DNA of 64,000 bases from an uncultured Pseudomonadales bacterium. GTDB taxonomy: Bacteria > Patescibacteriota > Microgenomatia > UBA1400 > Chazhemtobacteraceae. The stretch covers positions 81,018-145,017 of the forward strand of contig CAZUBK010000003.1 of the NCBI GenBank assembly GCA_964618725.1, given 5' to 3'. Numbering within the stretch: position 1 is the first letter of the stretch; each line of letters begins with the position of its first letter. A program made the position numbers and the translations under genes. A model generated the notes under the pieces. It was not told the DNA's origin, searched no databases, and saw nothing but the letters and a program-made list of their open reading frames with translations. Below, in pieces: positions 32,023 through 62,816 of this stretch.

Positions 32023-35000
32023 TTACTCCGGAATTTCTAACGTATAGTACGCATCATACGCATAGTTCTTGTTCTGTGCCATCACCTCAAAGAAGTACTT
32101 ACCTCCCTTTTTAAGTCCCGTTAGTTTCGCCTTGTGTATCTTTTCTCGTTTAGGTAGATCTACTTCCTCACCATACGCGAGTGTCTCGCCATAGTTCACT
32201 TTTCCGTATGCAAAGTGGTTAGTCTTGAAGGAGATGATGGCGTAGCCGTCTCCTACCTCTTCAACCGTGACATCACTGATCTTAGTTGGCTCCTTGTCAA
32301 AGAAGACCGCCATCGCTGTACCATAAACAATTCTTACCCCCTCAACAAAACCATTTGTCTTGTCCACCGGCTTCCGTATCTCTCTTAAGACTAGATCCGT
32401 TGCCTCCACCAGCTTCTCTCCCGGCCAGAGGTCATTAGCTTTTTGAATTGTCCTGAGTCTCCCTTCCTCGTAGTTAGAGGCCAAGTCTTGACCTGATTGA
32501 ATAATTGTTGCCACACTGTTCTCGACAAAAGAGTCAATATTGTCTTTAAGCTCTCTGGCCGGACGGTTGATGCTCTCCGCCAATTCGGCGGAAGAGTCCG
32601 CTAAGTTCTCCGAAGTCTTCGTAATAGCGGTGTAGTCTACTTTGATAATAGGGAGGTTAATTCCTGGCAGCTTGACTTCCGGCAGATTGATCTCTGGCAG
32701 ATTAATTGCCAGTCTTGGCAGCTCAAGATCTAGGTTGGGGATCACTACCTCTGGTACCCTGACCTCTGGTAATCTCACTTCAGCCAGTGTCTCAAGAAGG
32801 GTCCCTCCTTGGTCTAACAGATTAGCCAGAAAGCCCGACACCGGAGACAGTAGCGTTAGTATCTGGTCTTTTAGATTAGTTAACTCCTTTGCCTCCAGTT
32901 CTCGTCTGATGATGGCCTGCTTCTCAAGGTCTGGGATGGAGATCTTGCCTTCTCCCTCCCCGGAGGTGGGTGTCTCTCCTTCCTGGGCCAACAGGAGGTT
33001 AATCTTGTCTAGAGTGAGAAGATTAAGCGAGAACTCTTGAGAAGACTGGTTACCTGCCTTGTCTAAAGCCGCCACTGTCGTCTTGTATTTACCTAAGGTC
33101 AAGTCTTTACTGGTCTTGAAGCTGTAGCTCCAGGAGGTGGCGGTATTAGTTGTGGAAGTGGTGGAGGATCGCGACAGCGTCTCTTGGTCCACCAGTTCCT
33201 CACTGGTAATGATTCCGAGGAAAAGGTTTTGTTTGTAGTAGGAGACGACTAGCTTCTCGATGTTAAGGTTGTCGGTGATGGTACCGGTAAAGGTGGGTTG
33301 GTTGGTGTTGATTAACTGGTATCCGTCAACACTCCCCTTGTCGTCACCGACAGTAGCGGTAAGAGTCGGACTGCTTTGATCAGCGTAGAAGATTCTGCTG
33401 TGGCTTCTGCCGTTACCGGCACTGTCATAGGCGGTTACCCTAAAGCTTCTCTCGCCTTCCTTTACCTTGCCGTCGTTTTGACTACTCTCCCATGACGAGG
33501 AACTCTTGGTATATACCGATATGTATCCTGAGGAGTCATAGTCAATTACGTACTTAGATGTTGTGTAGTCAGCGGTAAGGGGAATTGAATCAATTGTAAT
33601 ATCTCCGGTATCTCCGTTGTCAATGAACAACTGGTAGTGAGACAACCCACTCCCTCCATCTGAGGACACCTTCCACTTGAAGGTCGGTCGAGAGTTACTG
33701 GTGTATGAAGCGTCTCCCGGGGACTCCAGGTCAAAAGAGGCAGGAGCGGTAGAGTCCAAAGTAATCGAGTCCGAGTAAGTAGAGGACTCATTGGAGTTAG
33801 CGTCCCTAAACTTGACATACACTGTCTGACTCCCATCTGTAGTACTCGCAAGCGTCCACGATTTAGACGTTGCGTAGTCTTCGTAGGACCCCGTCGAGAA
33901 GTCTGAGTTGTTAGAGACAAACATATCAATACCGGAAGCCGAGTCCACATCATCGCTAGCCGACAGCGTCAAGGTAACGGCGGTACTTGTCGAGTAGGTA
34001 GCACCACCGCCAATACTGATTGAACCCGTTGGTGAGACTGCATTAGCAAAGGTGAGACCAAAGTCAGAGAAGGTGGGGGTACTCACTCCATCACTACTAC
34101 TCAGGGTTACGTAGTACTGGCCATACCGGTGGCCATCAGTGACACACCCATTACTGGATATATCACTTCCGGAACTAATAGCACTACAAGAAGAAAAGTC
34201 AGTCGCTCCAGACATACTGCTTGAATTACTGGTTCTCACCCTGACAGTGGCGGTGGTATTGGAAGGAGTAGTAGCGGTATATGTGAGTGTTCCCCAATTA
34301 CTACTCCAGCCTGCATCAAAAATGCTTGATGTAAAAGTTGCAGTGGGATAGTAAGCTTCTTCAGAAGCATAGGTATTAAAAGTATCCACCTCTGATTTGT
34401 ACTGAGCGGCGATTTGGGAAGCAGTGAGGGCTGTGCCTGAGAGCACAAAGATTTCATCCAATGTCCCACTCAAATTTACAGTTTCTGTATATCCAGATCG
34501 ATTTGCCAATACAAATGGCGCAGACACATCCGTCATGGCAGCACCTACCGAACTATCTGTAATTGTTTCAGTATTTCCTCCGTCAATATATAATTTGGCA
34601 GAACTACCCGAAGAGAATACTGCCGTCAGATAGTGCCAAGCATCATCTCCATATGAAGAGACAGAATCAGCCACAGAAGTAGCCCCTGGGCTATAAAATT
34701 CTAAACGTCCTGGAGAAAATAGATGAAGAAGATAACTTTGGGTAGTAGCCCCGCTACTGTCGTACTTTGAGATAATACCTTTTGATATCGACGTTGTCTT
34801 TACCCAACCTCCTATTGTCATAGTTCCTGTGATGTTAAAATCACTCTTCCTCACTTCATACCCCACCGGTGTTTTACCTGAGGGAGAAGTGCCATTAAAG
34901 CCTTCACTTCCTCCTGTACAGGCTTTTTTAGTATAAACTGCTGTTTGAACCCCCCCATCATTGGCACAGAAATAGCCCCAGGAAGTGGTGTTGTCTGAGT

Positions 35001-37407
35001 TGGTGACAACTATCATGTATTCTGCACTTCCTGCATCATCGTTGTCCCATTCTTCGAATTCCTGCCCAGTGTCACCGATATCTGTATTGGTGTCAGCATA
35101 TGTGAGAGTTCCTAGATTTATGTCATACGTTTTTTGACGAAGAAAGCCAGTTGCCCCATCAAAAGTATATGCATTGGCCACTTGTCCCGAGGTATTACTG
35201 CTTGCTCCGTCACTATCTCCCTGGACAGAGAGTGGATTATTTCCTACTGCATCAGTCACCGAAGTCCAGGACTGGAAACTACCTGCAATGTTATCCAGAG
35301 GGGTTATTGTTACGTCGTCAAACCAAACTATATCAGTGTTTGCTGATCCCCGAAGATATACCACCCCTGCTGTTCCCGTCGCCTTCACCACTCCCGACAA
35401 CCGTGTATATGAAGTAGCTGTTGAAGTAGTTATGTTTGAAACAGTCCCAGATCCCGGATCAAATGCCAAAACTGCAGTATCTCCGCTGGTTACTCTAGCC
35501 CAAGCCGAGACAAGATAATGATTGCCGCTCACCAAAGTCACACTTTGTTTTGCTCCGACGTTTGCCGCCCCTGCTGTTATTTTCATCTCCTGTGCGCCCG
35601 TATGCTCTGAAGTATCCGTTGCCATAGTGGCATTTGTTTCCTGTGTCCAGGAATCAGTTAGAGTGCCCTCCATACCGCCATCAAGTACTGAATTGGGGGT
35701 AAGCTGGATATTATCAAAATAGGTTATATCGCCTACAGTATTACCTGCATACAGGTAGATCCTGACTTGGGTTGTATTGGCCGCCGTTTTGAAACTCGAT
35801 TCATAGCGGGTTGGTGTATAGACCCTAACTTGAGCTAATGTCTCAATCGAGCTTGCATTGGTCACGTCATACACTAACACATACGAGGTACCCACAATGC
35901 TTGCGTCATCTTTTTTCCAAAATGAGACTGTGTAATTGGTGCTTGGTGTGACAGTTATAGTTTGCGTTATTGCCGCTCCGGCTCCCCCAACTCTGGTAAC
36001 TTTAATATCTTGGGTGTCAAACATGGGTGTCGTCGTATTTTTCTCGCCGGTTATGGCGGTTATAAGCTGACTTGGCCAGTTTGTAGTCCCAGCAGTTTCC
36101 ATATCCCAATCGGTTAACATCGTTCCGTTAGTATTAGTTGAAGAGTTGTAGGCAGTTTGGTCTACGTTTCCTCCCAGGTTATAGGTTACTGGAGACAAAG
36201 TGCCACTCCCATCCAGGGAAACATAGAATTTGAGTGACGGATCTGCTACATAGCCTGCTTGTCTGCCTGTTCCTGAGTTATATAGATTTGTTATTTCAGT
36301 TGTCGTAAGTACTCTGTCAAAAATGGCAAAGTCGTCTATGAGGGCCTGGGCTTGATTTGTACCCGTATACGTACTACCAATGTAGTTTTGTGCTGCCGGA
36401 GTGGGAGCCGTAAAGGCAGTGGAAGAAGAAATCACACTTGAGCCGTTTTGATAAACCGTATAGGAATCTGAGGTAAAGTTGAACAGAATGGTGATGTAAT
36501 AATAGGTACTGGCTGCAAACGTAATGCCAGTTGAGCTGGTTTCGGTGCCATTGATATTTAGGGTCAGATCATCTTCTGACGCATCCATATACAAGGCAAT
36601 CCTATTTGCAGTGCCGTCTCCAAAGTCAAACAGATATTGATCTTGGCTGATAGAGCCGATAGCTGTGGGAGACTTTACCCAAAAACTAATCGTGCCCTGG
36701 TTAGCGTTTATGTGTTCATAATTATTCCCCGATACCTGTGCTCCTCTGTTAAAGGTAAGTAGGGATCCACTCGTCCCCGCCGCATTGCCATACATTGAAA
36801 CGGCTTGTGACAATTTTCCTGTATCAAAGTAACCACTGGCTTTGAATTGGTTTACATCTGTTGAGGTTGTTTCTTTTAAGTGATATCTAATTTGTGATCC
36901 CCAGGTATTCGTGGCATCCTGGGCATCGGTAGCTCCCGTGTTACCATAGTACATATAGATGTAGTCAGTGGCCGAAGATGCGTCAATTTGGGGAACTTCT
37001 ACCCAGACAGTGGAGGTGCCCGATTCATCCCATTTTTCAATTTCATAACTCAAAAGTGTTGTCCCATCTGAATCTGTAAACCGAATGTCTTGACCACTAC
37101 CTTGGGTTTTGGCGTAATCTACTCTGGTACTGTCTAGTTTCACCATGACGACAAAGTTGGTCAGATTTTCTGCCTGAGAAGAGTTGTCAAAAGTAATCTT
37201 TCTTCTCGATGACCAACTAGCGTTGTACCAAGAAGAAGTGGGAGAGATGCTCATTTCCCCAGCTACACTGGTTTTGACATTACTCCCACTCTGCCCTGTC
37301 CAGTCTGTCTCATTCCAAGGACTGGTTGCTGCCAACACCCACCACGGGATACTATTTACCACCATCAACACCGCCAAAAGTAATCCCAAGAATCTTCGTA
37401 GTTTCAC
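32023..37407 (-). CDS. Giant (1794 aa) secreted or surface protein. It has N-terminal LamG/DUF2341-like jelly-roll domains, internal LPE(V/I)N-type short repeats and a C-terminal FN3-like domain.
   Basis: A signal peptide MKLRRFLGLLLAVLMVVNSIPWWVLA is present. A DUF2341-like segment (IRFTDSDGTTLLSYEIEKWD) is present. The repeat region reads LPEVRVPEVVIPNLDLELPRLAINLPEINLPEVKLPGINLP. Confidence 0.8.
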   Translation of the reverse strand: MKLRRFLGLLLAVLMVVNSIPWWVLAATSPWNETDWTGQSGSNVKTSVAGEMSISPTSSWYNASWSSRRKITFDNSSQAENLTNFVVMVKLDSTRVDYAKTQGSGQDIRFTDSDGTTLLSYEIEKWDESGTSTVWVEVPQIDASSATDYIYMYYGNTGATDAQDATNTWGSQIRYHLKETTSTDVNQFKASGYFDTGKLSQAVSMYGNAAGTSGSLLTFNRGAQVSGNNYEHINANQGTISFWVKSPTAIGSISQDQYLFDFGDGTANRIALYMDASEDDLTLNINGTETSSTGITFAASTYYYITILFNFTSDSYTVYQNGSSVISSSTAFTAPTPAAQNYIGSTYTGTNQAQALIDDFAIFDRVLTTTEITNLYNSGTGRQAGYVADPSLKFYVSLDGSGTLSPVTYNLGGNVDQTAYNSSTNTNGTMLTDWDMETAGTTNWPSQLITAITGEKNTTTPMFDTQDIKVTRVGGAGAAITQTITVTPSTNYTVSFWKKDDASIVGTSYVLVYDVTNASSIETLAQVRVYTPTRYESSFKTAANTTQVRIYLYAGNTVGDITYFDNIQLTPNSVLDGGMEGTLTDSWTQETNATMATDTSEHTGAQEMKITAGAANVGAKQSVTLVSGNHYLVSAWARVTSGDTAVLAFDPGSGTVSNITTSTATSYTRLSGVVKATGTAGVVYLRGSANTDIVWFDDVTITPLDNIAGSFQSWTSVTDAVGNNPLSVQGDSDGASSNTSGQVANAYTFDGATGFLRQKTYDINLGTLTYADTNTDIGDTGQEFEEWDNDDAGSAEYMIVVTNSDNTTSWGYFCANDGGVQTAVYTKKACTGGSEGFNGTSPSGKTPVGYEVRKSDFNITGTMTIGGWVKTTSISKGIISKYDSSGATTQSYLLHLFSPGRLEFYSPGATSVADSVSSYGDDAWHYLTAVFSSGSSAKLYIDGGNTETITDSSVGAAMTDVSAPFVLANRSGYTETVNLSGTLDEIFVLSGTALTASQIAAQYKSEVDTFNTYASEEAYYPTATFTSSIFDAGWSSNWGTLTYTATTPSNTTATVRVRTSNSSSMSGATDFSSCSAISSGSDISSNGCVTDGHRYGQYYVTLSSSDGVSTPTFSDFGLTFANAVSPTGSISIGGGATYSTSTAVTLTLSASDDVDSASGIDMFVSNNSDFSTGSYEDYATSKSWTLASTTDGSQTVYVKFRDANSNESSTYSDSITLDSTAPASFDLESPGDASYTSNSRPTFKWKVSSDGGSGLSHYQLFIDNGDTGDITIDSIPLTADYTTSKYVIDYDSSGYISVYTKSSSSWESSQNDGKVKEGERSFRVTAYDSAGNGRSHSRIFYADQSSPTLTATVGDDKGSVDGYQLINTNQPTFTGTITDNLNIEKLVVSYYKQNLFLGIITSEELVDQETLSRSSTTSTTNTATSWSYSFKTSKDLTLGKYKTTVAALDKAGNQSSQEFSLNLLTLDKINLLLAQEGETPTSGEGEGKISIPDLEKQAIIRRELEAKELTNLKDQILTLLSPVSGFLANLLDQGGTLLETLAEVRLPEVRVPEVVIPNLDLELPRLAINLPEINLPEVKLPGINLPIIKVDYTAITKTSENLADSSAELAESINRPARELKDNIDSFVENSVATIIQSGQDLASNYEEGRLRTIQKANDLWPGEKLVEATDLVLREIRKPVDKTNGFVEGVRIVYGTAMAVFFDKEPTKISDVTVEEVGDGYAIISFKTNHFAYGKVNYGETLAYGEEVDLPKREKIHKAKLTGLKKGGKYFFEVMAQNKNYAYDAYYTLEIPE

Positions 37408-43062: not shown

Positions 43063-43675
43063 ATCAAAATTCCTCTTCGGTATTACTGCCGCCACCTTGG
43101 CAATTGTCGCCATTGGACTATTTGCCTTTTCTAATAAGGGCGCCACTCTTTCCTCTATCCCCACCCTCTCCCGTCAAGAATTAGTTCTCGGCGACTCCAC
43201 CTCTCGTGGCAATAAAGAGGCCGAACACTTCCTTGTCGAGTTCTCTGACTTCCAATGCCCCGCTTGTAAGGCCTTTAAGCCCGTTGTTGATCAATTGATC
43301 TCTCAATATGTTGACAAGCTCTCCTTCACCTATCGTCATTTCCCCCTCGATCAACACCCAGCCGCTCTTCCCGCCGCTATAGCCGCTGAGGCCGCCGCCA
43401 AACAAGGCAAGTTCTGGGAGATGTATGATCTGCTTTTTGAAAACCAAGAAACTCTTTCAGAGGAAACCGTCATCAAGCTAGCTGAGAACCTTCCACTTAA
43501 CATGGATCAATACAGAACCGACTCCGCTGCTGCCAAAGAAGAAGTCCTTCAAGACCGCTCTTACGGCCTCCAGATTGGCATCAACTCCACCCCCACCTTC
43601 TATCTTGACGGCAAGAAACTCATCCTCAACAACCCAGCTGACCTAAAAATTGCAGTCGATAAACTCTTTCAATAA
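43046..43675 (+). CDS. DsbA-like thioredoxin-fold disulfide oxidoreductase.
   Basis: The motif FSDFQCPACKAF (CPAC) is present. An N-terminal anchor is present. It overlaps the VKOR gene by 17 bp. Confidence 0.8.
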   Translation: MNLTSESKFLFGITAATLAIVAIGLFAFSNKGATLSSIPTLSRQELVLGDSTSRGNKEAEHFLVEFSDFQCPACKAFKPVVDQLISQYVDKLSFTYRHFPLDQHPAALPAAIAAEAAAKQGKFWEMYDLLFENQETLSEETVIKLAENLPLNMDQYRTDSAAAKEEVLQDRSYGLQIGINSTPTFYLDGKKLILNNPADLKIAVDKLFQ

Positions 43676-44752
43676 CTTACCCCCATCAACTTTTCGTCCA
43701 CTTTTCTCATCAGACTTCTAATTTCCTTCTTCACGTTGAAACTGCTGGCATGCTTCAAAACTCCAAGATATGAATCCATCGAAGCTAATAAAGATTCTTT
43801 CTCCATCATTCCAAGCTCATATCCTTCTACTTTATTTTTCAATTTTCGTAGCATCCTTATTTTGGTTTTAATCCTGACAATCTTGTGATGCGGAAATATC
43901 ACATACCCCAAAAAATCGATTCCCTGCGTATATTTCCTAATTGTTACCTTCCCAGGATGCAGATTAAGCCTTAATTTTTCTCGCAAGAAAACACCTACTT
44001 GCTCTTTCCACTCAATCAACTCTTCTTCTGAAGAAGACAACATAATAAAGTCATCAGTGTAGCGATAATAATATCGAACCCTAAGTTTGTGCTTAACAAA
44101 TTGATCCAACTCATTCATGTAAATATTGGCAAATAATTGTGAAGTCAGATTGCCAATTGGAATTCCCTGCCGAAACTTTTTACTCTCTCTCTCTCTCTCT
44201 CTCTCTTGCCAATCCATGACTGTTAACCACCTGCTCCAACAATCTCAAAACTTTTTCATCATTTATTTTCCTTTCCAAAATCGCCATCAAGATGTCTTGA
44301 TCCACACTTTGGAAGAACTTTTTGATATCACACTTAAGGGCAAAACAGACTCTGGTGTTGTTCGTACTCACTTTTCCTAATCCTGTACTTAAGGAAGAAA
44401 TCCCTTTATGAACTCCTTTCCCCATCCGACATGAAAAAGAGTTTGCCATAAAAGTGGAGTCAAATATTGGACTTAAGGTGCAAAATAAAGCGTGGTGTAG
44501 AACTCTGTCTCGTACCGTTGCCTTGTGAATTAACCTCTGTTTAGGATCCTTAATGTAAAATGGCACATATTTACCATGCGCATATCTACCTGCAAGTAAG
44601 TCCCTATGCAAAGCAAAAAGGTTCTCCTCAAGCCTGAATTCAAAACGCCTTACATCTTTTTTTCTCGTTTTCCCAATCTTAAATTGCTCCCACGCAGCCA
44701 GGAGACTCGGCAGAGAAGTCACTTTCTCGAATAAGTTCGTATATACTTTCAT
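43669..44752 (-). CDS. Diversity-generating-retroelement reverse transcriptase (Brt-like). It is interrupted by a frameshift inside a (CT)12 tract. Fragment 1 is 44180..44752 and fragment 2 is 43669..44217.
   Basis: The N-terminus MKVYTNLFEKVTSLPSLLAAWEQFKIGKTRKK...KQRLIHKATVRDRVLHHAL matches the start of DGR RTs. The downstream fragment carries GIPIGNLTSQLFANIYMNELD and the YxDD box RYTDDFIM. The 60 aa upstream of MKVY in the listed ORF overlap avd and are probably not coding. Confidence 0.85.
44183..44206. repeat. (CT)12 dinucleotide microsatellite inside the RT coding region (read as ...RERERE...).
   Basis: The tract ctctctctctctctctctctctct is visible directly. The two RT fragments end and begin within the same codon context. 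Inserting one CT unit, or deleting two, would fuse the frames. Confidence 0.8.
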
Positions 44753-44755
44753 CCT

Positions 44756-45106
44756 ATGAATGAGTTTGATCTTCCTATTTTCAAGAAAGTCTACGACCTC
44801 TACAAAGTTTTTCATAGCTATCGAAAAACCATACCCAAACAAGATCGTCATACCCTTTGGCAAAGAGCAGATACTATCATTCTCGACATGCTTGAAACAA
44901 TAATGACTGCTGTCAACCTCCCTAAAAACCACAAGCTTCCATTTTTGGAAAAAACCAACGCCAAACTAAGCATCTTGAAAATCTTGTTTAGACTCTCCTA
45001 CGAAACCAAGGTAATAGATGACCGAAAGTATCTCACCTTGCAAGAACACCTTAATGAAATAGGCAAAATGCTCGGTGGCTGGATTAAAGCCAGCCGAGCA
45101 ATCTAA
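44756..45106 (+). CDS. avd: DGR accessory variability determinant (Avd), a four-helix-bundle protein of the 23S rRNA-IVS family.
   Basis: The 116-aa protein has a C-terminus LNEIGKMLGGWIKASRAI that matches the Avd/IVS consensus (...VGRILGSWIARVNRK in BPP-1 bAvd). The N-terminus reads LPIFKKVYDLYKVF. It is on the opposite strand to the RT, with its start 3 bp from the RT start. Confidence 0.75.
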   Translation: MNEFDLPIFKKVYDLYKVFHSYRKTIPKQDRHTLWQRADTIILDMLETIMTAVNLPKNHKLPFLEKTNAKLSILKILFRLSYETKVIDDRKYLTLQEHLNEIGKMLGGWIKASRAI

Positions 45107-45113
45107 ACCTAAG

Positions 45114-45231
45114 AAGGAGACTTCCGGCGGGCAACGCCAAGGTCGGAGAGGCGGTTGGAATCCCAGTTGTTGTTGACGTTGACCTGACCCTCGTTGACGC
45201 CTACATTGCAGCGGTTGCCATCGGAGTCAAC
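45114..45231 (-). repeat. DGR template repeat (TR). The sense strand is the minus strand.
   Basis: It is ~118 bp and near-identical to 45546-45662. At all 13 mismatches the TR has T on the plus strand, which is A on the minus strand. It is rich in in-frame AAC codons on the minus strand (GTT on plus) and lies outside any ORF. Confidence 0.85.
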
Positions 45232-45365: not shown

Positions 45366-45490
45366 TCTATTATGATCCGTAAATCACAATACTCTGGTCC
45401 TATTAAAGACAGTGGTTCTGCGAAACCAAAGCCGTACTCTGATTCACATCTGCAGAACAAATTCATAATACCAAATCAAAAAAGAAAGTC

Positions 45491-45512
45491 CCGCTTACAA
45501 TTGTAAGCGGGA
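45491..45512 (-). terminator. Perfect 22-bp palindrome hairpin about 35 bp downstream of the VR and target-gene stop. It is a candidate for the DGR target-recognition stem-loop, a minus-strand terminator, or both.
   Basis: cccgcttacaattgtaagcggg is its own reverse complement. On the minus strand it is followed by ACTTTCTTTTTTG. Confidence 0.55.
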
Positions 45513-45530
45513 CAAAAAAGAAACAAAAAA

Positions 45531-46367
45531 TCAAGAGGTCAAGCCAAGGAACTGCCGGCGGGCAACGCCAAGGCCGGAGAGGCGGCAGGAACCCCAGCTG
45601 AAGCTGACGTAGACCTGACCCTCGATGACGCCTACAACGCAGCGGTTGCCACCGGAGTCAACGTCACGGCAACGAAGATAGTTGCTGAACAACTCGCCGT
45701 GCCCTAAGGCCAAATAGCCCGCAGCCGCGTAGGCCAGCTCAACAACTAGCGAGACTTGGAATCCAGCCTCATCGACAGCCTTCTCTTGGTCAAGCCAAAT
45801 CATGTTGGTTGAGTCAGGGAGAGCACCAATGAGATAGTAGCCCGGTTCTGAGTAGTTAACCTCCGAAAAAAGCTCTCGTTCTTCCCGACGAAGATACCAA
45901 TTGCTTGGATACAGATAGCGTGGCGCTGCTTTTTCCCGAAGCTGAACCTGATTCAGTCTTGGTATCGCTGCCAAACATAAACCATCATCCCTAGCTTCTT
46001 CAAGACTACCCTCTCCGCACGGAACCAATCCGTACCGAGCAATCTCAATTTTAGAAAGGCGGATTCCCAGCTTGCTGGCCACCTCAATCCCAATTGCTTT
46101 CTTCCCCATGATCTTGGCAGCGCGTGCCCAGGTCACAGAAGAAGTAGAAATCCCCTTCCAGTGCGAGATCACATCACGCCTTTTGTTCGGATCATCAATC
46201 ATTCTCTGGAGATCATCCAACGTGATTCCCATCTCCTCAGCTCGCCGAAACCATTCGCTCAGCGTGCCAACTATCTGACTTGGAGATTTACCTTGGTTCG
46301 CGATATTCATCGCACACCTCTTCCTTTTTTGAGATATTTGTATCCCGAATGCGGGACTCAGTTGCAT
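45531..46367 (-). CDS. DGR target (variable) protein, 278 aa, with a C-terminal VR-encoded hypervariable patch. The fold is probably CLec/FGE-like.
   Basis: The VR falls in the last ~40 codons (...NRCVVGVIEGQVYVSFSWGSCRLSGLGVARRQF). TR AAC codons are in frame with VR codons TGC, AGC, TTC, AGC, TAC and ATC. I see no obvious signal peptide. Confidence 0.8.
   Translation of the reverse strand: MQLSPAFGIQISQKRKRCAMNIANQGKSPSQIVGTLSEWFRRAEEMGITLDDLQRMIDDPNKRRDVISHWKGISTSSVTWARAAKIMGKKAIGIEVASKLGIRLSKIEIARYGLVPCGEGSLEEARDDGLCLAAIPRLNQVQLREKAAPRYLYPSNWYLRREERELFSEVNYSEPGYYLIGALPDSTNMIWLDQEKAVDEAGFQVSLVVELAYAAAGYLALGHGELFSNYLRCRDVDSGGNRCVVGVIEGQVYVSFSWGSCRLSGLGVARRQFLGLTS
45546..45662 (-). repeat. 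DGR variable repeat (VR) within the 3' end of the target gene.
   Basis: It pairs with the TR at 45114-45231. There are 13 substitutions, all at TR adenines (7 A-to-G, 6 A-to-T in minus sense). The 3' end in minus sense is GC-rich (CCTTGGCGTTGCCCGCCGG), which resembles an IMH. It ends 15 bp before the TGA stop. Confidence 0.85.
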
Positions 46368-49785: not shown

Positions 49786-49860
49786 CTACGGTCTATCAAA
49801 AATCGCCCCATTTTCTTATAAGGCATTGACAACTCCACCCTAATTAATTAATTCTTAACT

Positions 49861-51825
49861 ATGGGAGCAGAACAAGACAAAGAGCGCCGGTCGCGCTTTC
49901 TTGAGGGTCTTCAAAAACACCAGAAAGAACAAGAAAGCAAGCAGTGGGAAGGAACCTTTTCTGAGTTCCTCGATTTAGTAGCTGAAAACCCATCAGTTAG
50001 CTGCACCGCCCACGAGTACCTTCGTGATAGTATCCTCCATTTTGGTGTTGAAAAATTGCCCAACGGTACCAAGCGATATGGTCTCTTCGAAAACGGCCCC
50101 TATGCCCTTTACGGCATCGAAGAAACACTCGAGGAAGTCGTTGACATGATTATCAAGGGCACCGAGAACGAAAAGGCCCGCGAATTAATTGGCCTTCTCG
50201 ATGGACCCCCCGGATCAGGTAAAAGCACCATCGCCGACGCCATTAAATGGGCCATGGAGCAGTATAGTCAAACGCAAGAAGGCGCTCGCTATGTCATCTC
50301 AACCTGTCCTCGATTTGACGACCCACTTTGGTTAGTTCCCGAAACCCTAAGACCCCAATTCCAACAGGAATTTGGCATTAGAATCGATGGTCGAGTTTGC
50401 CCAGATTGTCAACTCAAATATGGCGACAAACCCGACTGGACTGAAGAAAAAGGACTAGTCAAACGTATTTTCATCTCCGAAAAAGACCGCATTTGCATCG
50501 GTACCTTTTGGGCCACTGATCCTAAAACGCAAGATATCTCCGAGCTCCTCGGTACCGTCGATCTTACCGGTTACGCCGCACACGGTGTCACCACCCATCC
50601 CGATGCCTACAGTTTTGATGGGGAATTGAACCGAAGCAATCGCGGCTTCATGGAATTTGGTGAAATGTTCAGGGCCGACGAGGTTTTTCTCCGCCCGCTT
50701 CTCAATATCAGCGAACAAGAGCTAAAAGTGCCCAACTTCGCCAACCTTCATTATGACGCCTTCATCCTCGGTCATACCAACATCGAAAGTTACAAAAAAC
50801 GCCTCGTCAATGATAAAGAGGCCGAAGCACTTCGTCGCCGTCTTCGAGTCATCGATGTTCCCCTTAACAAAAAAGTCTCTGCCGAAATTAGAATCTATGA
50901 AAAACTAATTAAAGAAAAGGGTCAGATCACTAGTCGAGTCCACATCAATCCCCTTACCCTTCGTATCGCCGCCATCTGGACAGTTCTCACTCGTCTTAAA
51001 CCATCTCAGCTGCTAACCGATCCTCTCAACAAAATGAAGTTTTACGATGACCAACCCATCTCTCTAGCCGAATCTAACCGTCCTCCAACCATGGACGAAA
51101 TCAAGAAAGAAGCCGGTCGAGACGAGTGTATGAGTGGTATCCCGCCGACATATACCGTCATCAGTCTTGTCGACGCAATGATCAAAGATGACCGCCACTG
51201 CCTTAACCCCTATGACGCCCTTACTGCTCTTAAAAACAATCTCGATCACAACACCGACACCAAGGAAATGCCTGCCAAGGAACGTGAACACGTCCTCAAC
51301 ATGATCGCCTATGCCGAACGTGAATACAATGCCACCATTAAGCGAGAAGTCCAAGCTGCTTTCGTCTATTCTTTTGAAGAATCCGCCCAAGCTCTTTTTG
51401 ACAAATATATGCAACACGTTGAGGCATATATCCAAAAAAGAAATCTTACCGATCCCTTAACTGGTCGTGACCTCTCTCCAGATGAAAAGTTCATGAGAAG
51501 CCTTGAAGAACGCATCGGTATCGTCGAAAACGCCAAGAAAGAAAAGCGTCTCACTTTCCTTGCCGAACGAGGCATGGTTACCATTGATCGCGATCGTTAT
51601 ACTTCCTACCCCCGTCTTCGTGAAGCTATCGAAGCCAAGCTTTTTGCTGATATGCGCGATTATATTCAAGTCGCCACTAGTGTCACCACTCCCAACGAAG
51701 AACAACTCAAACGTATCAACACCGTCGCCGCTACTCTGATTGAAGAACACGGCTTCTGCTCCGAATGCGCCAATCACGCCATCCGTTACGTCGGAGACCT
51801 CCTCAGCAAGGAGAACTCTAAATAA
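49861..51825 (+). CDS. prkA: PrkA-family serine protein kinase with an AAA-type ATPase domain.
   Basis: The Walker A motif LLDGPPGSGKSTIADAI is present. The protein is 654 aa, with PrkA-type N-terminal and C-terminal domains. Confidence 0.9.
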   Translation: MGAEQDKERRSRFLEGLQKHQKEQESKQWEGTFSEFLDLVAENPSVSCTAHEYLRDSILHFGVEKLPNGTKRYGLFENGPYALYGIEETLEEVVDMIIKGTENEKARELIGLLDGPPGSGKSTIADAIKWAMEQYSQTQEGARYVISTCPRFDDPLWLVPETLRPQFQQEFGIRIDGRVCPDCQLKYGDKPDWTEEKGLVKRIFISEKDRICIGTFWATDPKTQDISELLGTVDLTGYAAHGVTTHPDAYSFDGELNRSNRGFMEFGEMFRADEVFLRPLLNISEQELKVPNFANLHYDAFILGHTNIESYKKRLVNDKEAEALRRRLRVIDVPLNKKVSAEIRIYEKLIKEKGQITSRVHINPLTLRIAAIWTVLTRLKPSQLLTDPLNKMKFYDDQPISLAESNRPPTMDEIKKEAGRDECMSGIPPTYTVISLVDAMIKDDRHCLNPYDALTALKNNLDHNTDTKEMPAKEREHVLNMIAYAEREYNATIKREVQAAFVYSFEESAQALFDKYMQHVEAYIQKRNLTDPLTGRDLSPDEKFMRSLEERIGIVENAKKEKRLTFLAERGMVTIDRDRYTSYPRLREAIEAKLFADMRDYIQVATSVTTPNEEQLKRINTVAATLIEEHGFCSECANHAIRYVGDLLSKENSK

Positions 51826-51826
51826 T

Positions 51827-52990
51827 ATGTCTTCAAAAGAAGTCGGATCTTTTTCCATCTCCCGTAAAGACTGGAGTCTTCATCGCAAGGCTCCAATTGA
51901 CGTCTCCCGGCATGACGAAAAAATCAAAGAAGTCATCCGCGAGAATCTCCCTGACATTATTGGTGACTACGACATCATTACCTCCGATCCCGACACCAAA
52001 CAAATTGTTCGCATCCCCATGCGAACCCTGGAGCTACCTCGAATCCGTTATGGCGACCCAACCAAGGGTATTGGTAGTGGAGAAGGCAAAAAGCCCGGCG
52101 ATATTTTAGGTCAAATCCCCAAAAAAGGTGAAGGCAACGAACCCGGCGCTGGTGACCAACCCGGAGAAGAAGGCTATTACGAAGTCGAGTACGATATCCT
52201 TGAGTTAGCCTTCGAAGAGTTAGGCCTCCCTTATCTTAAACCCAAACAAACCGCTGATCTAGAACAAGTCGATATCATCTACGACCGACTTCGCAAGAAA
52301 AAGCAGCTCACTAACATTGACATCACCAGAACTGTTTTAGAAAACATGAAACGCAACGCCAAACAAAAGGGACAAGTAGTTTTTGGTGATCTCAAACTCG
52401 ACGATCTGGTAAATCGCGACAGCCGTGAAAAACCTCACCCCAGCACAAACGCCCTCCTCATTCTCATGGCCGACAACTCCGGTTCAATTGGTAAGAACGA
52501 ACAATACATTATTCGTATTACCTGTCGTTGGATCCTCGGCTTACTCCGTCGCCGTTACCAACAGGTCGAGGTCCTTCTTATCAATCATACGTCTGATGCC
52601 CGTGAGGTTGACGAAAAAGCTTTTTTTAGCCAAAACGCCTCTGGAGGTACCATCTGTTCTTCTGCCAACGAACTTGCTCTGAAAATAATCCATGACCGTT
52701 TTCCCGTTTCCCAATACAACATCTATCCACTTCACTTTTCCGATGGTGATAATCTTAGCTCCGACAATGATCACTGCGTCAACACCGTCAAGGCCCTCCT
52801 CGAACTTGGAGTCAACCAATACGCCTATTTTCAAATCGGTCGAAACAATTATGGTATGTTTTCCTCCAATCTATATGACATTTACAAGAAAAAAATCCAG
52901 CACGAACGCTTTCACGCTCTCTCAACCCCCGACAAAAAGGATATCTATCCCGCCCTTCAAGAAATATTTAACGCTGAATTGAATGAATAA
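51827..52990 (+). CDS. yhbH: YeaH/YhbH (DUF444) vWA-domain protein.
   Basis: MSSKEVGSFSISRKDWSLHRKAP matches the family N-terminus. A vWA-like MIDAS region (LILMADNSGS) is present. The likely start is the ATG at 51827, rather than the listed 51740, which overlaps prkA. Confidence 0.8.
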   Translation: MSSKEVGSFSISRKDWSLHRKAPIDVSRHDEKIKEVIRENLPDIIGDYDIITSDPDTKQIVRIPMRTLELPRIRYGDPTKGIGSGEGKKPGDILGQIPKKGEGNEPGAGDQPGEEGYYEVEYDILELAFEELGLPYLKPKQTADLEQVDIIYDRLRKKKQLTNIDITRTVLENMKRNAKQKGQVVFGDLKLDDLVNRDSREKPHPSTNALLILMADNSGSIGKNEQYIIRITCRWILGLLRRRYQQVEVLLINHTSDAREVDEKAFFSQNASGGTICSSANELALKIIHDRFPVSQYNIYPLHFSDGDNLSSDNDHCVNTVKALLELGVNQYAYFQIGRNNYGMFSSNLYDIYKKKIQHERFHALSTPDKKDIYPALQEIFNAELNE

Positions 52991-57518: not shown

Positions 57519-58136
57519 ATGCCCAATATCGATCCTCCATTGGTTGATCTTAAGGTCAATAATCCCGTCACCTACCTTAAAAAATGGTGGGCTAAAATCA
57601 TCGGCAATGAAGGTATCGACTTCCGTCTTCACTTTCATCCTCTCACCGCCATCGCTATGGCACTCGCCATCGCCAGTGTCGGCTTTGGCGTTGGCCGCTT
57701 CGTCTTCCCCTTCTCTGTCCCATTCTTTAAGTATGTCGAAGATCCTGTAAGGGTCGAAGATCCTGTAAGGGTCGAAGATCCTGTAAGGGTCGAAGATCCT
57801 GTACCAGTCTCCTCTACTGACATTCTCAAAGACACCGCCTTCGTCGGCACCCTTCACTACTCCGACACAACAAAAAAGTACTACCTCGTCACCACCTCTT
57901 CCGAAGCCATCACTCTACAAATCCCCAATAATATTGATCTTGAACCCCTCATCAGTAAACGCATCCTCGCCGCCGGACAATATAATAAAACGAAACGACT
58001 ACTAGAAGTCGACGACGCCAAAGATATGGAAGTCCTTCCCAAGAAACCTTCTCCTGTTCCCACCGCTGCCCCCACACCAACCCCCACTACCACTCCCGTT
58101 CCTACCGAGACAATCCCCTCTGGGTCTTCTCTCTAA
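57519..58136 (+). CDS. Hypothetical membrane-anchored protein with tandem DPVRVE peptide repeats and a Pro/Thr-rich C-terminus.
   Basis: A TM helix is present. The repeat EDPVRVEDPVRVEDPVRVEDPV is present. A PTPTPTTTPVPT tail is present. Confidence 0.5.
   Translation: MPNIDPPLVDLKVNNPVTYLKKWWAKIIGNEGIDFRLHFHPLTAIAMALAIASVGFGVGRFVFPFSVPFFKYVEDPVRVEDPVRVEDPVRVEDPVPVSSTDILKDTAFVGTLHYSDTTKKYYLVTTSSEAITLQIPNNIDLEPLISKRILAAGQYNKTKRLLEVDDAKDMEVLPKKPSPVPTAAPTPTPTTTPVPTETIPSGSSL
57735..57803 (+). repeat. Perfect 18-bp tandem repeat, about 3.8 copies.
   Basis: gtcgaagatcctgtaagg occurs three times, followed by a partial copy. Confidence 0.85.
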
Positions 58137-61883: not shown

Positions 61884-62816
61884 TTGACAACTCTTTATTC
61901 AAACGCCGATACTACTAATATGTCCAAAGCTCATCCCAAGAATCTCATCTTCGTCCCTCTTATTGCCGCCTTCAGCATCTTTAATATGCCCAGTATCACT
62001 CTGCAACTGCCACGTATCGAATTCAAAATGCCCGATACTACTTCAAGAATGCCTAGATTTGAGATTACCATGCCTGACACAACCCCGAGAATGCCAGATA
62101 CCACCCCCCGAATGCCTGATACAACTCCCGTTATGCCCGACACAACTCCGAGAATGCCCGGACTACTCAACTATTTTTACAATTTCTATACCGGCATACG
62201 CAAATTCCTTGCTCCTCCTACTCCCTCCAATATCCCCATGCCCCTTGGTCAATGGCAGCAAGACGCCCCCACCCCAACCCCGACTCCCATCTACAAAACT
62301 CCCGCCGGCACTCTTCAAATTGGCACCTATAAGTCTCCCGCTCCCTCAGTCACCCTCACACCCAACCAACCAGTTCTTTCTTCTTTCTCTATCAATGCTC
62401 CCTCCGGTTGGTATCGTAGTAATGGTTCCGGCACTCTCCTTGTTCGTTTCGATTCACCCAAAGTCGATATTCAAAAAATCGAAGACGGCAGTCTAACCAC
62501 CAATGCTTTCATTATCGTCCGCGCCACTGACGCTTACTCAAGCCTCGATGATTTTGTCACTCAATACAAGTCATCTAACTCTGCTGCTACTCTGCTTAGT
62601 TCTTCCAATACCACCGTTAACGGCCAGACCGCCTCTTCCCTCGAATTCACCTATACCACTACTATCGAGACAAAGAAGCTTCTTACTCACGAAATGGACC
62701 TTCTTCTCTTCAAAAATGGCTATAGTTTCCTCATAAAAGGGACCTCCGCCGACTCCGCCTGGAATGAAAACAGCAGTGACCTTCGCTCTGCTCTTTATTC
62801 TTTCAAATTTAACTAA
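61884..62816 (+). CDS. Hypothetical secreted or membrane protein with tandem MPDTTPR heptapeptide repeats.
   Basis: The repeat run MPDTTSRMPRFEITMPDTTPRMPDTTPRMPDTTPVMPDTTPRMPG is present. An N-terminal hydrophobic segment is present. Confidence 0.5.
   Translation: MTTLYSNADTTNMSKAHPKNLIFVPLIAAFSIFNMPSITLQLPRIEFKMPDTTSRMPRFEITMPDTTPRMPDTTPRMPDTTPVMPDTTPRMPGLLNYFYNFYTGIRKFLAPPTPSNIPMPLGQWQQDAPTPTPTPIYKTPAGTLQIGTYKSPAPSVTLTPNQPVLSSFSINAPSGWYRSNGSGTLLVRFDSPKVDIQKIEDGSLTTNAFIIVRATDAYSSLDDFVTQYKSSNSAATLLSSSNTTVNGQTASSLEFTYTTTIETKKLLTHEMDLLLFKNGYSFLIKGTSADSAWNENSSDLRSALYSFKFN
62028..62162 (+). repeat. 21-bp tandem repeat, about 6.4 imperfect copies, each beginning with ATGCC.
   Basis: The units start at 62028, 62049, 62070, 62091, 62112 and 62133. 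Confidence 0.75.

Follow-up and report, generated by a model that had tools for sequence, protein, structure and literature searches.

The DGR of Bordetella phage BPP-1 comprises the target gene mtd with its variable repeat (VR), the accessory gene avd, a template repeat (TR) and the reverse transcriptase (RT) gene brt. The DGR found in the 64-kb stretch of DNA analysed here (64,000 nucleotides, hereafter the window) resembles it in having a DGR-type RT with GIPIGNLTSQ and YTDD motifs, a bAvd protein, TR/VR differences that fall only at adenines and a VR at the 3' end of the target gene. It differs from the BPP-1 element in the inverted orientation of avd, in a target protein that falls into no recognisable family and in an RT gene interrupted by a frame-setting repeat tract, which lies in an insertion that Brt lacks. 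The compact architecture of the window is also seen in relatives among the DGRs of CPR/Patescibacteria. Wu et al. (2018, PMC5758913) handle the CPR DGRs as a group, and clustered CPR RTs appear in a further study (PMC11661182). The DGR surveys consulted (Wu 2018, Roux 2021 and a 2024 study in BMC Genomics) contain no mention of a repeat tract or of split RT genes. We likewise found no description of a repeat tract or of phase variation in a DGR RT in the full-text literature searched; Paul et al. 2017 (Nature Microbiology), which concerns CPR DGRs, lies outside that scope.

A DGR RT that is not encoded in one frame is described for Quimbyvirus. According to Benler et al. (2021, PMC8008677), this RT occupies three overlapping ORFs and the associated VR shows adenine-specific variation; two programmed frameshifts are proposed, and no repeat tract is reported, in that paper. 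The RT gene of the window differs in that its break is a single shift, located in a long, perfect dinucleotide repeat that differs in length from one genome to the next.

Simple-sequence-repeat contingency loci and phasevarions, such as the phase-variable mod and hsdS methyltransferases of Neisseria and Haemophilus (PMC5909438, PMC7383803), offer a second comparison. As in those systems, an intragenic repeat count sets the frame of an enzyme, with downstream consequences at the population level, and repeat number differs between otherwise identical sequences. The RT tract departs from phasevarions in that the switched enzyme would be a targeted mutator, one hypermutable site controlling another, in that its hosts are uncultivated CPR bacteria, not host-adapted pathogens, and in that reversibility is here something we infer. 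Repeat-number switches are also known in mutator genes, for example the tandem-repeat changes in mutL of Salmonella. There, too, the copy number of a repeat inside a mutability gene turns mutability on or off. The mutL switch acts on the genome-wide mutation rate via mismatch repair, whereas a switch in the RT gene would act on site-directed retro-mutagenesis of a single gene.

Organisation of the DGR in the window

The window contains a complete DGR (target gene with VR, TR, inverted avd and RT) of a Microgenomates-like CPR bacterium. The genome's SufB, which has a 100% identical counterpart on an NCBI contig, groups it with Microgenomates/Collierbacteria-like CPR bacteria. The target gene, an ORF at 45531..46367 on the minus strand, encodes a 278-aa protein with the VR at its C terminus; the protein matched no Pfam family even at E-values up to 5. 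TR (45120..45231, minus strand) and VR (45551..45662, minus strand) form a 112-nt direct repeat. In the target ORF the VR is located 3'-terminally, with 20 nt between its end and the stop codon. The two copies differ at 14 positions, 14 of 14 at TR adenines on the minus (coding) strand, which read as T on the plus strand; the adenine-only pattern reported in the earlier note is thus borne out. A terminator-like hairpin with an 11-bp stem followed by a T run (45488..45513, minus strand), a pattern match from a consensus scan, lies just after the target gene and separates it from TR, avd and the RT gene. A search of the whole window against Rfam gave no matches.

The accessory variability determinant bAvd is encoded at 44756..45106 on the plus strand (Pfam PF22296, E = 7.9e-18). 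Its gene is inverted relative to that of the RT, the two start codons lying 3 nt apart. The closest relative (L362) has the same avd/RT arrangement and a 278-aa target homologue in the same position; its RT is intact and has no tract, only GGAGAGAGT being present at the tract site. The best homologues of the window's RT, with 51-57% identity, are RTs of CPR metagenome-assembled genomes and are typically 349 aa long.

A dinucleotide tract divides the RT gene

The RT is encoded on the minus strand by two ORFs that overlap across a perfect (CT)12 tract at 44183..44206, which corresponds to (AG)12 on the coding strand. Both the 24-nt tract and the pair of ORFs meeting in it are as the earlier note described: the tract was read directly from the sequence and was also returned by Tandem Repeats Finder (period 2, 12.0 copies, 100% matches). 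It lies about 1.4 kb from the VR and is the sole dinucleotide run of five or more units in the 64-kb window, in which the longest homopolymer is 8. In any frame the (AG)12 tract encodes (RE)n, with no stop codon within it.

The N-terminal RT ORF spans 44180..44932 and encodes 190 aa from the ATG at 44752 (44180..44752). This half contains motifs 1-3, including LKCDIKKFF, as identified from the ORF list, Pfam RVT_1 and an alignment to 8ub7_A, and ends ...NSHGLARERERERE*, a TAA following the tract directly in the present frame. The C-terminal half (43669..44217, 182 aa), delimited from the ORF list and RVT_1, begins MDWQERERERESKKFRQGIPIGN in a frame offset by 1 nt, stays open to its natural stop and carries motif 4 (GIPIGNLTSQ), motif 5 (YTDD) and the thumb. 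An exact-protein look-up with the C-terminal half found no protein on record. RVT_1 profile positions 7-108 fall in the N-terminal ORF and positions 110-205 in the C-terminal ORF, a division that indicates a single clean frameshift inside one RT. Apart from the frame at n = 12, all RT motifs are intact, and the gene has the signature of the DGR clade: GIPIGNLTSQ fits the motif-4 pattern [I/L/V]GxxxSQ and YTDD fits YxDD.

Of the RT alleles rebuilt in silico with 8-16 units, only three form one continuous ORF: n = 10 (359 aa), n = 13 (361 aa) and n = 16 (363 aa). The expectation that adding one CT unit or removing two would restore an RT of about 360 aa is therefore correct, and a one-unit change in the tract is enough to move the RT between an intact and a truncated frame. 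The proposed position of the tract, before RT motif 3, has to be revised. The best relative with a solved structure is the Bordetella-phage-type DGR RT 8ub7_A (E = 1.5e-46), and in the alignment to it the tract sits in an insertion that follows LKxDxxKFF (motif 3) and directly precedes GIPIGxLTSQ (motif 4); this insertion is absent from Brt. An AlphaFold2 model of the fused n = 13 RT has a pLDDT of 92.2, with a dip only at residues 181-200. Together with the absence of the insert from Brt and from the closest relative, this points to a permissive surface loop, with motif 3 before it and motif 4 after it, as the site of the tract.

Distribution of the tract among related RTs

A perfect (AG)7-35 tract is present at the same RT loop in at least 119 loci of species-representative genomes, mostly CPR MAGs; a few of these loci are from nanopore assemblies, in which repeat lengths are less reliable. 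Among the matches listed, 26 of the 112 assessable tract loci are in frame (binomial p = 0.027 against one third). A separate count, covering 113 loci among the matches listed, assigned 47 and 40 loci to the two shifted frame classes, and the frames of 11 loci were verified by eye. In an unbiased metagenome sample, 4 tract loci are in frame and 14 out of frame, and all 86 tract-free loci are in frame (86/86). Within the RT clade, the gene is out of frame in 14 of 17 loci with a tract against 0 of 40 without one (Fisher p = 9e-11), and the tract-free DGR RTs from viruses are all in frame (92/92). When the samples are pooled, 29 of 128 loci are in frame (ON) and 99 are OFF. The in-frame share lies below the one third expected by chance, which hints that the genomic frame matters. 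On the evidence of these reading frames, most of the sampled tract-bearing genomes appear to sit in the OFF state. Contingency loci resemble the tract-bearing RTs in this respect, many of their alleles being OFF in sequenced genomes.

Close relatives in the metagenome sample have a repeat tract in the loop in 17 of 57 cases (~30%). Other repeats occur at this loop among the metagenome relatives, namely G10, G11, (CT)16 and (CT)21. No other dinucleotide run of seven or more units was found in 823 kb of DNA flanking related loci. A single origin of the tract was considered and rejected: tract-bearing RTs are interspersed with tract-free RTs, the nearest neighbour being tract-free in 7 of 16 cases, and three repeat types are represented. 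Two pairs of loci are identical over 1060 nt of flanking sequence (100%) and differ in the tract, with n = 14 and 13 in L066 and L085 and with (CT)16 and (CT)21 in L290 and L294, from which it follows that repeat number changes faster than point mutations accumulate. L066 and L085 also carry an in-frame TAG, so the RT encoded there may be dead.

Out-of-frame alleles retain the features of functional RT genes

Among the matches listed, both RT halves are open in 73 of 75 OFF loci and 21 of 22 ON loci, and YxDD is kept in 83 of 86 OFF loci and 25 of 26 ON loci. For out-of-frame alleles dN/dS is 0.07-0.11, the part downstream of the shift included; in the pair L001/L041, in which both members are OFF, it is 0.085-0.108, and this again includes the downstream half. 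ON and OFF alleles are equally divergent from the RT family. Both halves of the gene are under purifying selection. The repeats of the DGRs themselves are similar in the two states: A-biased TR/VR pairs are present in 49 of 86 OFF loci and 14 of 26 ON loci, and the median number of A-mismatches is 18 in OFF loci and 17 in ON loci (all among the matches listed).

A proposed switch of DGR mutagenesis

We propose, with a probability of roughly 0.6, that the tract is a slipped-strand contingency switch that turns DGR mutagenesis on and off, the window having been captured in the OFF state, one unit short of ON. Slipped-strand mispairing at replication would add or remove AG units of 2 nt each, and the RT gene would thereby cycle through three frames. 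One of these (reached here at n = 10, 13 or 16) would yield the complete RT, its (RE)n insert doing no harm, and the DGR could rewrite the VR. In the other two, translation would end at or soon after the tract, yielding only the N-terminal 190 aa without YTDD, and the VR would be frozen. The tract would be a contingency locus in the usual sense, by which a lineage switches targeted hypermutation on and off stochastically. Switching would probably be reversible within populations and act at the DNA level, and the ON or OFF state would be expected to track turnover of the VR.

Several properties of contingency loci are found here. The window has a long perfect intragenic repeat, far above background. 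Among relatives other than the window's own species, ON and OFF alleles both exist in nature, and repeat number varies among close relatives. The gene is kept under selection, as judged from the two intact halves and the dN/dS of ~0.1, and OFF alleles would probably be able to return to ON. Of the explanations put forward in the earlier note, a phase-variable switch is strongly favoured by the comparative data: at least 119 species-level genomes have a long perfect tract in this loop, the repeat number is near-random modulo 3 and frameshifts are confined to tract-bearing genes (14/17 against 0/40).

Weighing of other explanations

The earlier note also allowed for an assembly error and for a decaying element, and neither fares well. 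Were the repeat count an assembly or sequencing error, the true number of units would be in frame (10 or 13) and the RT simply intact. Dinucleotide repeats are prone to PCR stutter, and an independent Logan assembly, of run SRR12113420, which alone gave matches to the window's Avd and to the neighbouring DsbA-like protein, splits into two contigs at the tract; this contig break is indirect evidence for frequent switching in a clonal population, but could also stem from PCR stutter. The same k = 31 assembly nevertheless has exactly 12 units with both flanks (contig L240 starts tttttA(CT)12tgcc), and the tract, at 24 nt, fits within a typical read or k-mer. Frameshifts are absent from the 178 tract-free RT genes that went through the same pipeline (92/92 and 86/86 in frame), and at least 100 independent assemblies, from many groups and assemblers, likewise have an out-of-frame count; an error is consequently very improbable. 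A search for a second allele of the window locus, in which its flanks were allowed a variable gap, found no match in the species-representative genomes and JGI metagenomes. Under decay, the tract would have expanded, with neutral or deleterious effect, in a loop that tolerates it, and the out-of-frame copies, the window's included, would be dead RTs in the course of being lost. It would account for the preponderance of out-of-frame copies among tract-bearing loci, for the intact, tract-free RT of the closest relative and for the additional lesions in L066/L085 and L096. It is difficult to reconcile with OFF alleles of which 73 of 75 have both halves open and full length with catalytic motifs retained, with a dN/dS of ~0.1 downstream of the shift in an OFF/OFF pair, or with ON and OFF alleles that have diverged equally from the family and have equally diversified VRs. 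Nor would it explain why long perfect tracts of different repeat types recur at one site and nowhere else in 823 kb, and the window itself has a full set of intact RT motifs and a TR/VR pair that differs only at adenines (14 of 14). For the RT family as a whole we reject decay, and we consider it a poor explanation overall, if marginally less so than an assembly error.

The main rival to the switch is recoding at the level of expression, which we judge unlikely, but appreciably less so than decay. RNA polymerase or the ribosome would slip by one unit (2 nt, in either direction) on (AG)n, some full-length RT would be made whatever the genomic frame, the tract would tune RT output to a low level and repeat variation in the DNA would be largely a neutral by-product. 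Bacterial RNA polymerase and ribosomes are, to our knowledge, not established to slip on dinucleotide repeats; from the sequence, a tRNA that reads AGA or GAG would re-pair perfectly after a 2-nt shift, and so would an RNA:DNA hybrid. Near-uniform frames, with 47 and 40 loci in the shifted classes, are also expected if the genomic frame is unimportant, and recoding would likewise fit the purifying selection on RT halves whose consensus sequence is out of frame. A precedent is the frameshifted yet apparently active RT of Quimbyvirus, ascribed by its authors to programmed frameshifting (PMC8008677). Tract-bearing loci more often have a GC-rich hairpin directly behind the tract (MFE ≤ -4 in 41% against 12.5%, p = 0.0015), a geometry that resembles a recoding stimulator, but the window's own post-tract linker folds weakly (-2.2 kcal/mol, z = -1.0) and contains no convincing hairpin. 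Programmed recoding is marked by a fixed direction, a conserved slippery site and a stimulatory structure; what was found is two shifted classes of comparable size, which one-directional frameshifting cannot both rescue, no classical slippery heptamer and, in the window, that weak fold. A TAA or TAG stands immediately after the tract in one frame in 39 of 112 loci among the matches listed, the window included, and the shortfall of in-frame alleles (29/128, below one third) suggests that the genomic frame is not neutral. Another way to obtain activity from an OFF allele would be a split enzyme, with the halves translated separately and then joining as a functional RT of two pieces. The C-half frame of the window does have an ATG 11 nt upstream of the tract, with AGGTGG before it. 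Across the 86 OFF loci, however, the C-half frame has a start codon in 54, an ATG in 27 and an SD-like motif in 10, so the split arrangement is not conserved, and the product of an in-frame allele is one continuous chain. With only 10 of 86 OFF loci combining a start codon and an SD-like motif, separate translation of the C-terminal half was rejected as a mechanism of general reach, and of all the explanations weighed here the split enzyme is the least credible.

Implications for DGRs of CPR bacteria

Extended to the family, the switch model holds that about 30% of CPR-clade DGRs carry a maintained and repeatedly evolved tract, whether (AG)n, (CT)n or poly-G, at one permissive RT loop, and that this tract serves as a stochastic, heritable and reversible switch of hypermutation. 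Most populations would be parked OFF, with their VR variant locked in, and would be invisible to surveys that look for intact RTs. We lean towards this wider reading, with slightly less confidence than for the switch itself. Annotation pipelines are expected to label tract-bearing RT genes as frameshifted pseudogenes. Surveys that enter via intact RT proteins probably arrive at too low a number of CPR DGRs, and where an intact RT is required most tract-bearing elements would escape them.

If recoding were to operate instead, it would involve an unusual 2-nt slippage on a dinucleotide repeat, which would also be notable. If the tract is a switch, repeat-tract contingency loci extend beyond host-adapted pathogens to uncultivated ultra-small bacteria, and the RT gene would provide a clear example from nature of a hypermutable site under the control of a second one. 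To keep rewriting a binding protein that is of use carries a cost, which raises the question of how DGR mutagenesis is held in check. A heritable and reversible switch in the RT gene itself would be a simple answer to it in a large group of organisms.

Organisation of the split RT locus

The window encodes its reverse transcriptase (RT) on the minus strand as two overlapping ORFs. The N-terminal ORF (44180..44752 from its ATG, 190 aa) ends in ...NSHGLARERERERE followed by TAA, and the C-terminal ORF (43669..44217, 182 aa) starts MDWQERERERESKKFRQGIPIGN. Common to both is (AG)12, the minus-strand reading of a (CT)12 tract at 44183-44206, for which Tandem Repeats Finder and direct sequence reading agree on a period of 2, 12.0 copies and 100% matches. 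Together with the ORF coordinates, this confirms the earlier note's account of two ORFs meeting in a perfect 24-nt CT tract. The tract is the only dinucleotide run of at least 5 units in the 64-kb window, in which the longest homopolymers are no longer than 8. Positions 7-108 of the Pfam RVT_1 profile match the N-terminal ORF and positions 110-205 the C-terminal ORF, and the pair is therefore one RT with one frameshift. Among in-silico alleles with n=8-16, a single ORF is present only at n=10, 13 and 16 (359, 361 and 363 aa, respectively), so that, as had been claimed, adding one CT unit or removing two yields one RT of about 360 aa.

The fused RT contains both GIPIGNLTSQ and YTDD, and its best solved relative is the diversity-generating retroelement (DGR) RT 8ub7_A (E 1.5e-46). 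In the alignment to 8ub7_A, tract and linker form a 15-residue insertion directly before motif 4, not before motif 3 as previously placed. Modelled with AlphaFold2, the n=13 protein scores pLDDT 92.2 and pTM 0.87, a confident prediction in which pLDDT dips (to 68-74) only at residues 181-200, where the (RE)n insert and its linker lie.

All parts of a DGR are present at the locus. Its template repeat (TR, 45120-45231) and variable repeat (VR, 45551-45662) are minus-strand copies of a direct repeat of 112 nt; they differ at 14 positions, 14/14 of them at minus-strand TR adenines, which upholds the adenine-only pattern noted earlier. The VR ends 20 nt ahead of the stop codon of a minus-strand target ORF (45531..46367, 278 aa), which has no match in Pfam and is followed by a terminator-like hairpin. 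bAvd (44756-45106, PF22296, E 7.9e-18) lies on the plus strand, its start codon 3 nt from that of the RT (44752-44756), and the same inverted layout occurs in the window's closest relative, L362 (1674-1678). As avd is inverted relative to RT and TR, any TR-RT transcript would cross it antisense.

The window's SufB groups the genome with Microgenomates/Collierbacteria-like CPR bacteria, and the Logan assembly of run SRR12113420 encodes an identical protein. Plus-strand GC skew across the window is extreme (-0.35 as a whole, between -0.3 and -0.6 in 2-kb bins) and independent of gene orientation; in related CPR loci the absolute skew reaches at most 0.18 (median 0.06). A plus strand so rich in C and T may also promote CT runs. 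Three islands of near-zero or weak skew, at 32023-37407, 45531-46367 and 49852-52987, contain respectively a 1794-aa LamG and DUF2341 protein, the DGR target gene and an ORF pair at ~50-53 kb, and may be recently acquired DNA. Two other tandem repeats are present: a perfect one with an 18-nt unit and 3.8 copies (57735-57803), and another with a 21-nt unit, 4.2 copies and 72% match (62070-62158). An Rfam search of all 64 kb yielded neither a family at gathering score nor a tRNA.

Repeats at the same site in related RTs

Homologues of the fused RT number thousands of CPR DGR RTs, with a typical length of 349 aa. Many divergent ones (52-57% identity) carry a variable-length in-frame (RE)n run in the same loop, as do 21 of the 120 best intact homologues. 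Species-representative genomes were scanned for at least 7 AG units with the PIGNLTSQ coding motif 6-36 nt further on, giving at least 119 loci, nearly all from CPR MAGs; tracts among the loci listed are perfect and 7 to 35 units long. Other repeats occupy this loop in L270, L306, L290 and L294: G10, (AG)8 then G11, and coding-strand (CT)16 or (CT)21. At the tract site, the window's closest relative (353 aa and intact, 74% identity) shows only GGAGAGAGT, tract-bearing RTs are scattered among tract-free ones, and no other dinucleotide run of at least 7 units occurs in the 823 kb flanking the 119 loci listed. Taken together, the multiple repeat types, the intermixing, the bare closest relative and the absence of flanking runs indicate that long repeats arose repeatedly at one RT site.

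The frame of each locus was assigned by comparing the tblastn match frames of its N- and C-terminal halves. Among the matches listed, 26 of 112 assessable tract loci are in frame (ON), and a separate count over 113 loci gives 47 and 40 for the two shifted (OFF) classes. Three-frame translation of 11 loci revealed clean frames on either side, changing only at the tract. A motif-only scan of viral contigs, used as a control, returned 120 DGR RTs, all without a tract; 109/110 are in frame, and 92/92 under stricter criteria. Metagenome contigs were scanned with a motif downstream of the loop, a search that takes no account of the tract. Of its 104 assessable loci, all 86 without a repeat are in frame, and 14 of the 18 with one are out of frame. 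A repeat is present in 17 of the 57 close relatives in this sample (N-half identity at least 45%); 14 of these 17 are out of frame, compared with 0/40 of those lacking one (Fisher p=9e-11).

Four locus pairs share 1060 nt of 100% identical flanks, and in two the repeat number differs: 14 and 13 units in L066 and L085, and (CT)16 and (CT)21 in L290 and L294. Repeat number is thus the fastest-changing feature of these loci. L066 and L085 also have an in-frame TAG 46 codons ahead of the tract, where the RT has its conserved ALKCD; either a nonsense mutation or codon reassignment could explain it.

A proposed frame switch and its alternatives

A slipped-strand contingency switch in the RT gene, the phase-variable option of the earlier note, is the best-supported reading of these sequences. 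Each AG unit gained or lost would move the gene among three frames, one giving a full-length RT that tolerates an (RE)n insert and the other two an RT cut off ahead of motif 4 and YTDD. The window would be OFF at n=12, one unit from ON. With both samples pooled (listed matches included), the in-frame share of dinucleotide-tract loci is 29/128, a little under one third; the deficit for the 112 loci alone, among the matches listed, has a binomial p of 0.027. This is a hint that the genomic frame matters, with OFF often the favoured state.

An assembly error at the tract is disfavoured, being contradicted by the confirmed tract, the in-frame tract-free controls and the k=31 Logan assembly of SRR12113420, in which the tract again has exactly 12 units. 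That assembly is broken in two at the tract (L240 1-31, L241 5130-5160): one contig ends inside it and the next opens with 6 nt of flank and (CT)12. The break implies that the assembly graph branches at the repeat, and fits length heterogeneity or stutter in the reads alike. Decay of out-of-frame RTs, also suggested earlier, is disfavoured too. Both halves are open at full length in 73/75 OFF and 21/22 ON loci, YxDD is retained in 83/86 and 25/26, and divergence from the window RT is equal in the two groups. L001 and L041 (n=35 and 17, both OFF, 91% identical) have dN/dS of 0.108 in the N-terminal half and 0.085 downstream of the shift; for L002 and L092 the two halves give 0.074 and 0.085. 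A-biased TR/VR pairs adjoin 49/86 OFF and 14/26 ON RTs; the median number of adenine mismatches is 18 for OFF and 17 for ON. Out-of-frame alleles are thus alive rather than decaying. Given the intact halves, low dN/dS and diversified VRs, the downstream half must be read in the correct frame at a frequency sufficient for selection to act on it.

Such reading could also come from slippage in transcription or translation, the main rival, and DNA- and expression-level models may coexist. An AG repeat regains perfect pairing after a 2-nt shift, and could rescue both shifted classes. GC-rich hairpins directly 3' of the tract are enriched in tract-bearing loci relative to tract-free relatives (41% against 12.5% with MFE of -4 kcal/mol or lower in length-matched 22-nt linkers, p=0.0015), but the window's own linker folds weakly. 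The hairpins, between repeat and PIGN motif, are short, many have a TTC(G)-type loop, and they reach -17 kcal/mol in 29 nt; loci with them include L039, L027, L115, L067, L086, L070, L028, L042 and L088. Benler et al. (PMC8008677) describe a phage DGR RT encoded in three ORFs, for which they proposed programmed frameshifts, and state that predictions of DGR RTs had up to then been of single ORFs. Separate translation of the C-terminal half is disfavoured, as the arrangement is not conserved.

Both DGRs and phase variation by repeat tracts are well known on their own. A literature search, which did not cover the main paper on DGRs of CPR bacteria (Paul et al. 2017), found no paper joining the two. 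What would be new here is a DGR RT with a built-in hypermutable frame switch, apparently common across CPR bacteria.
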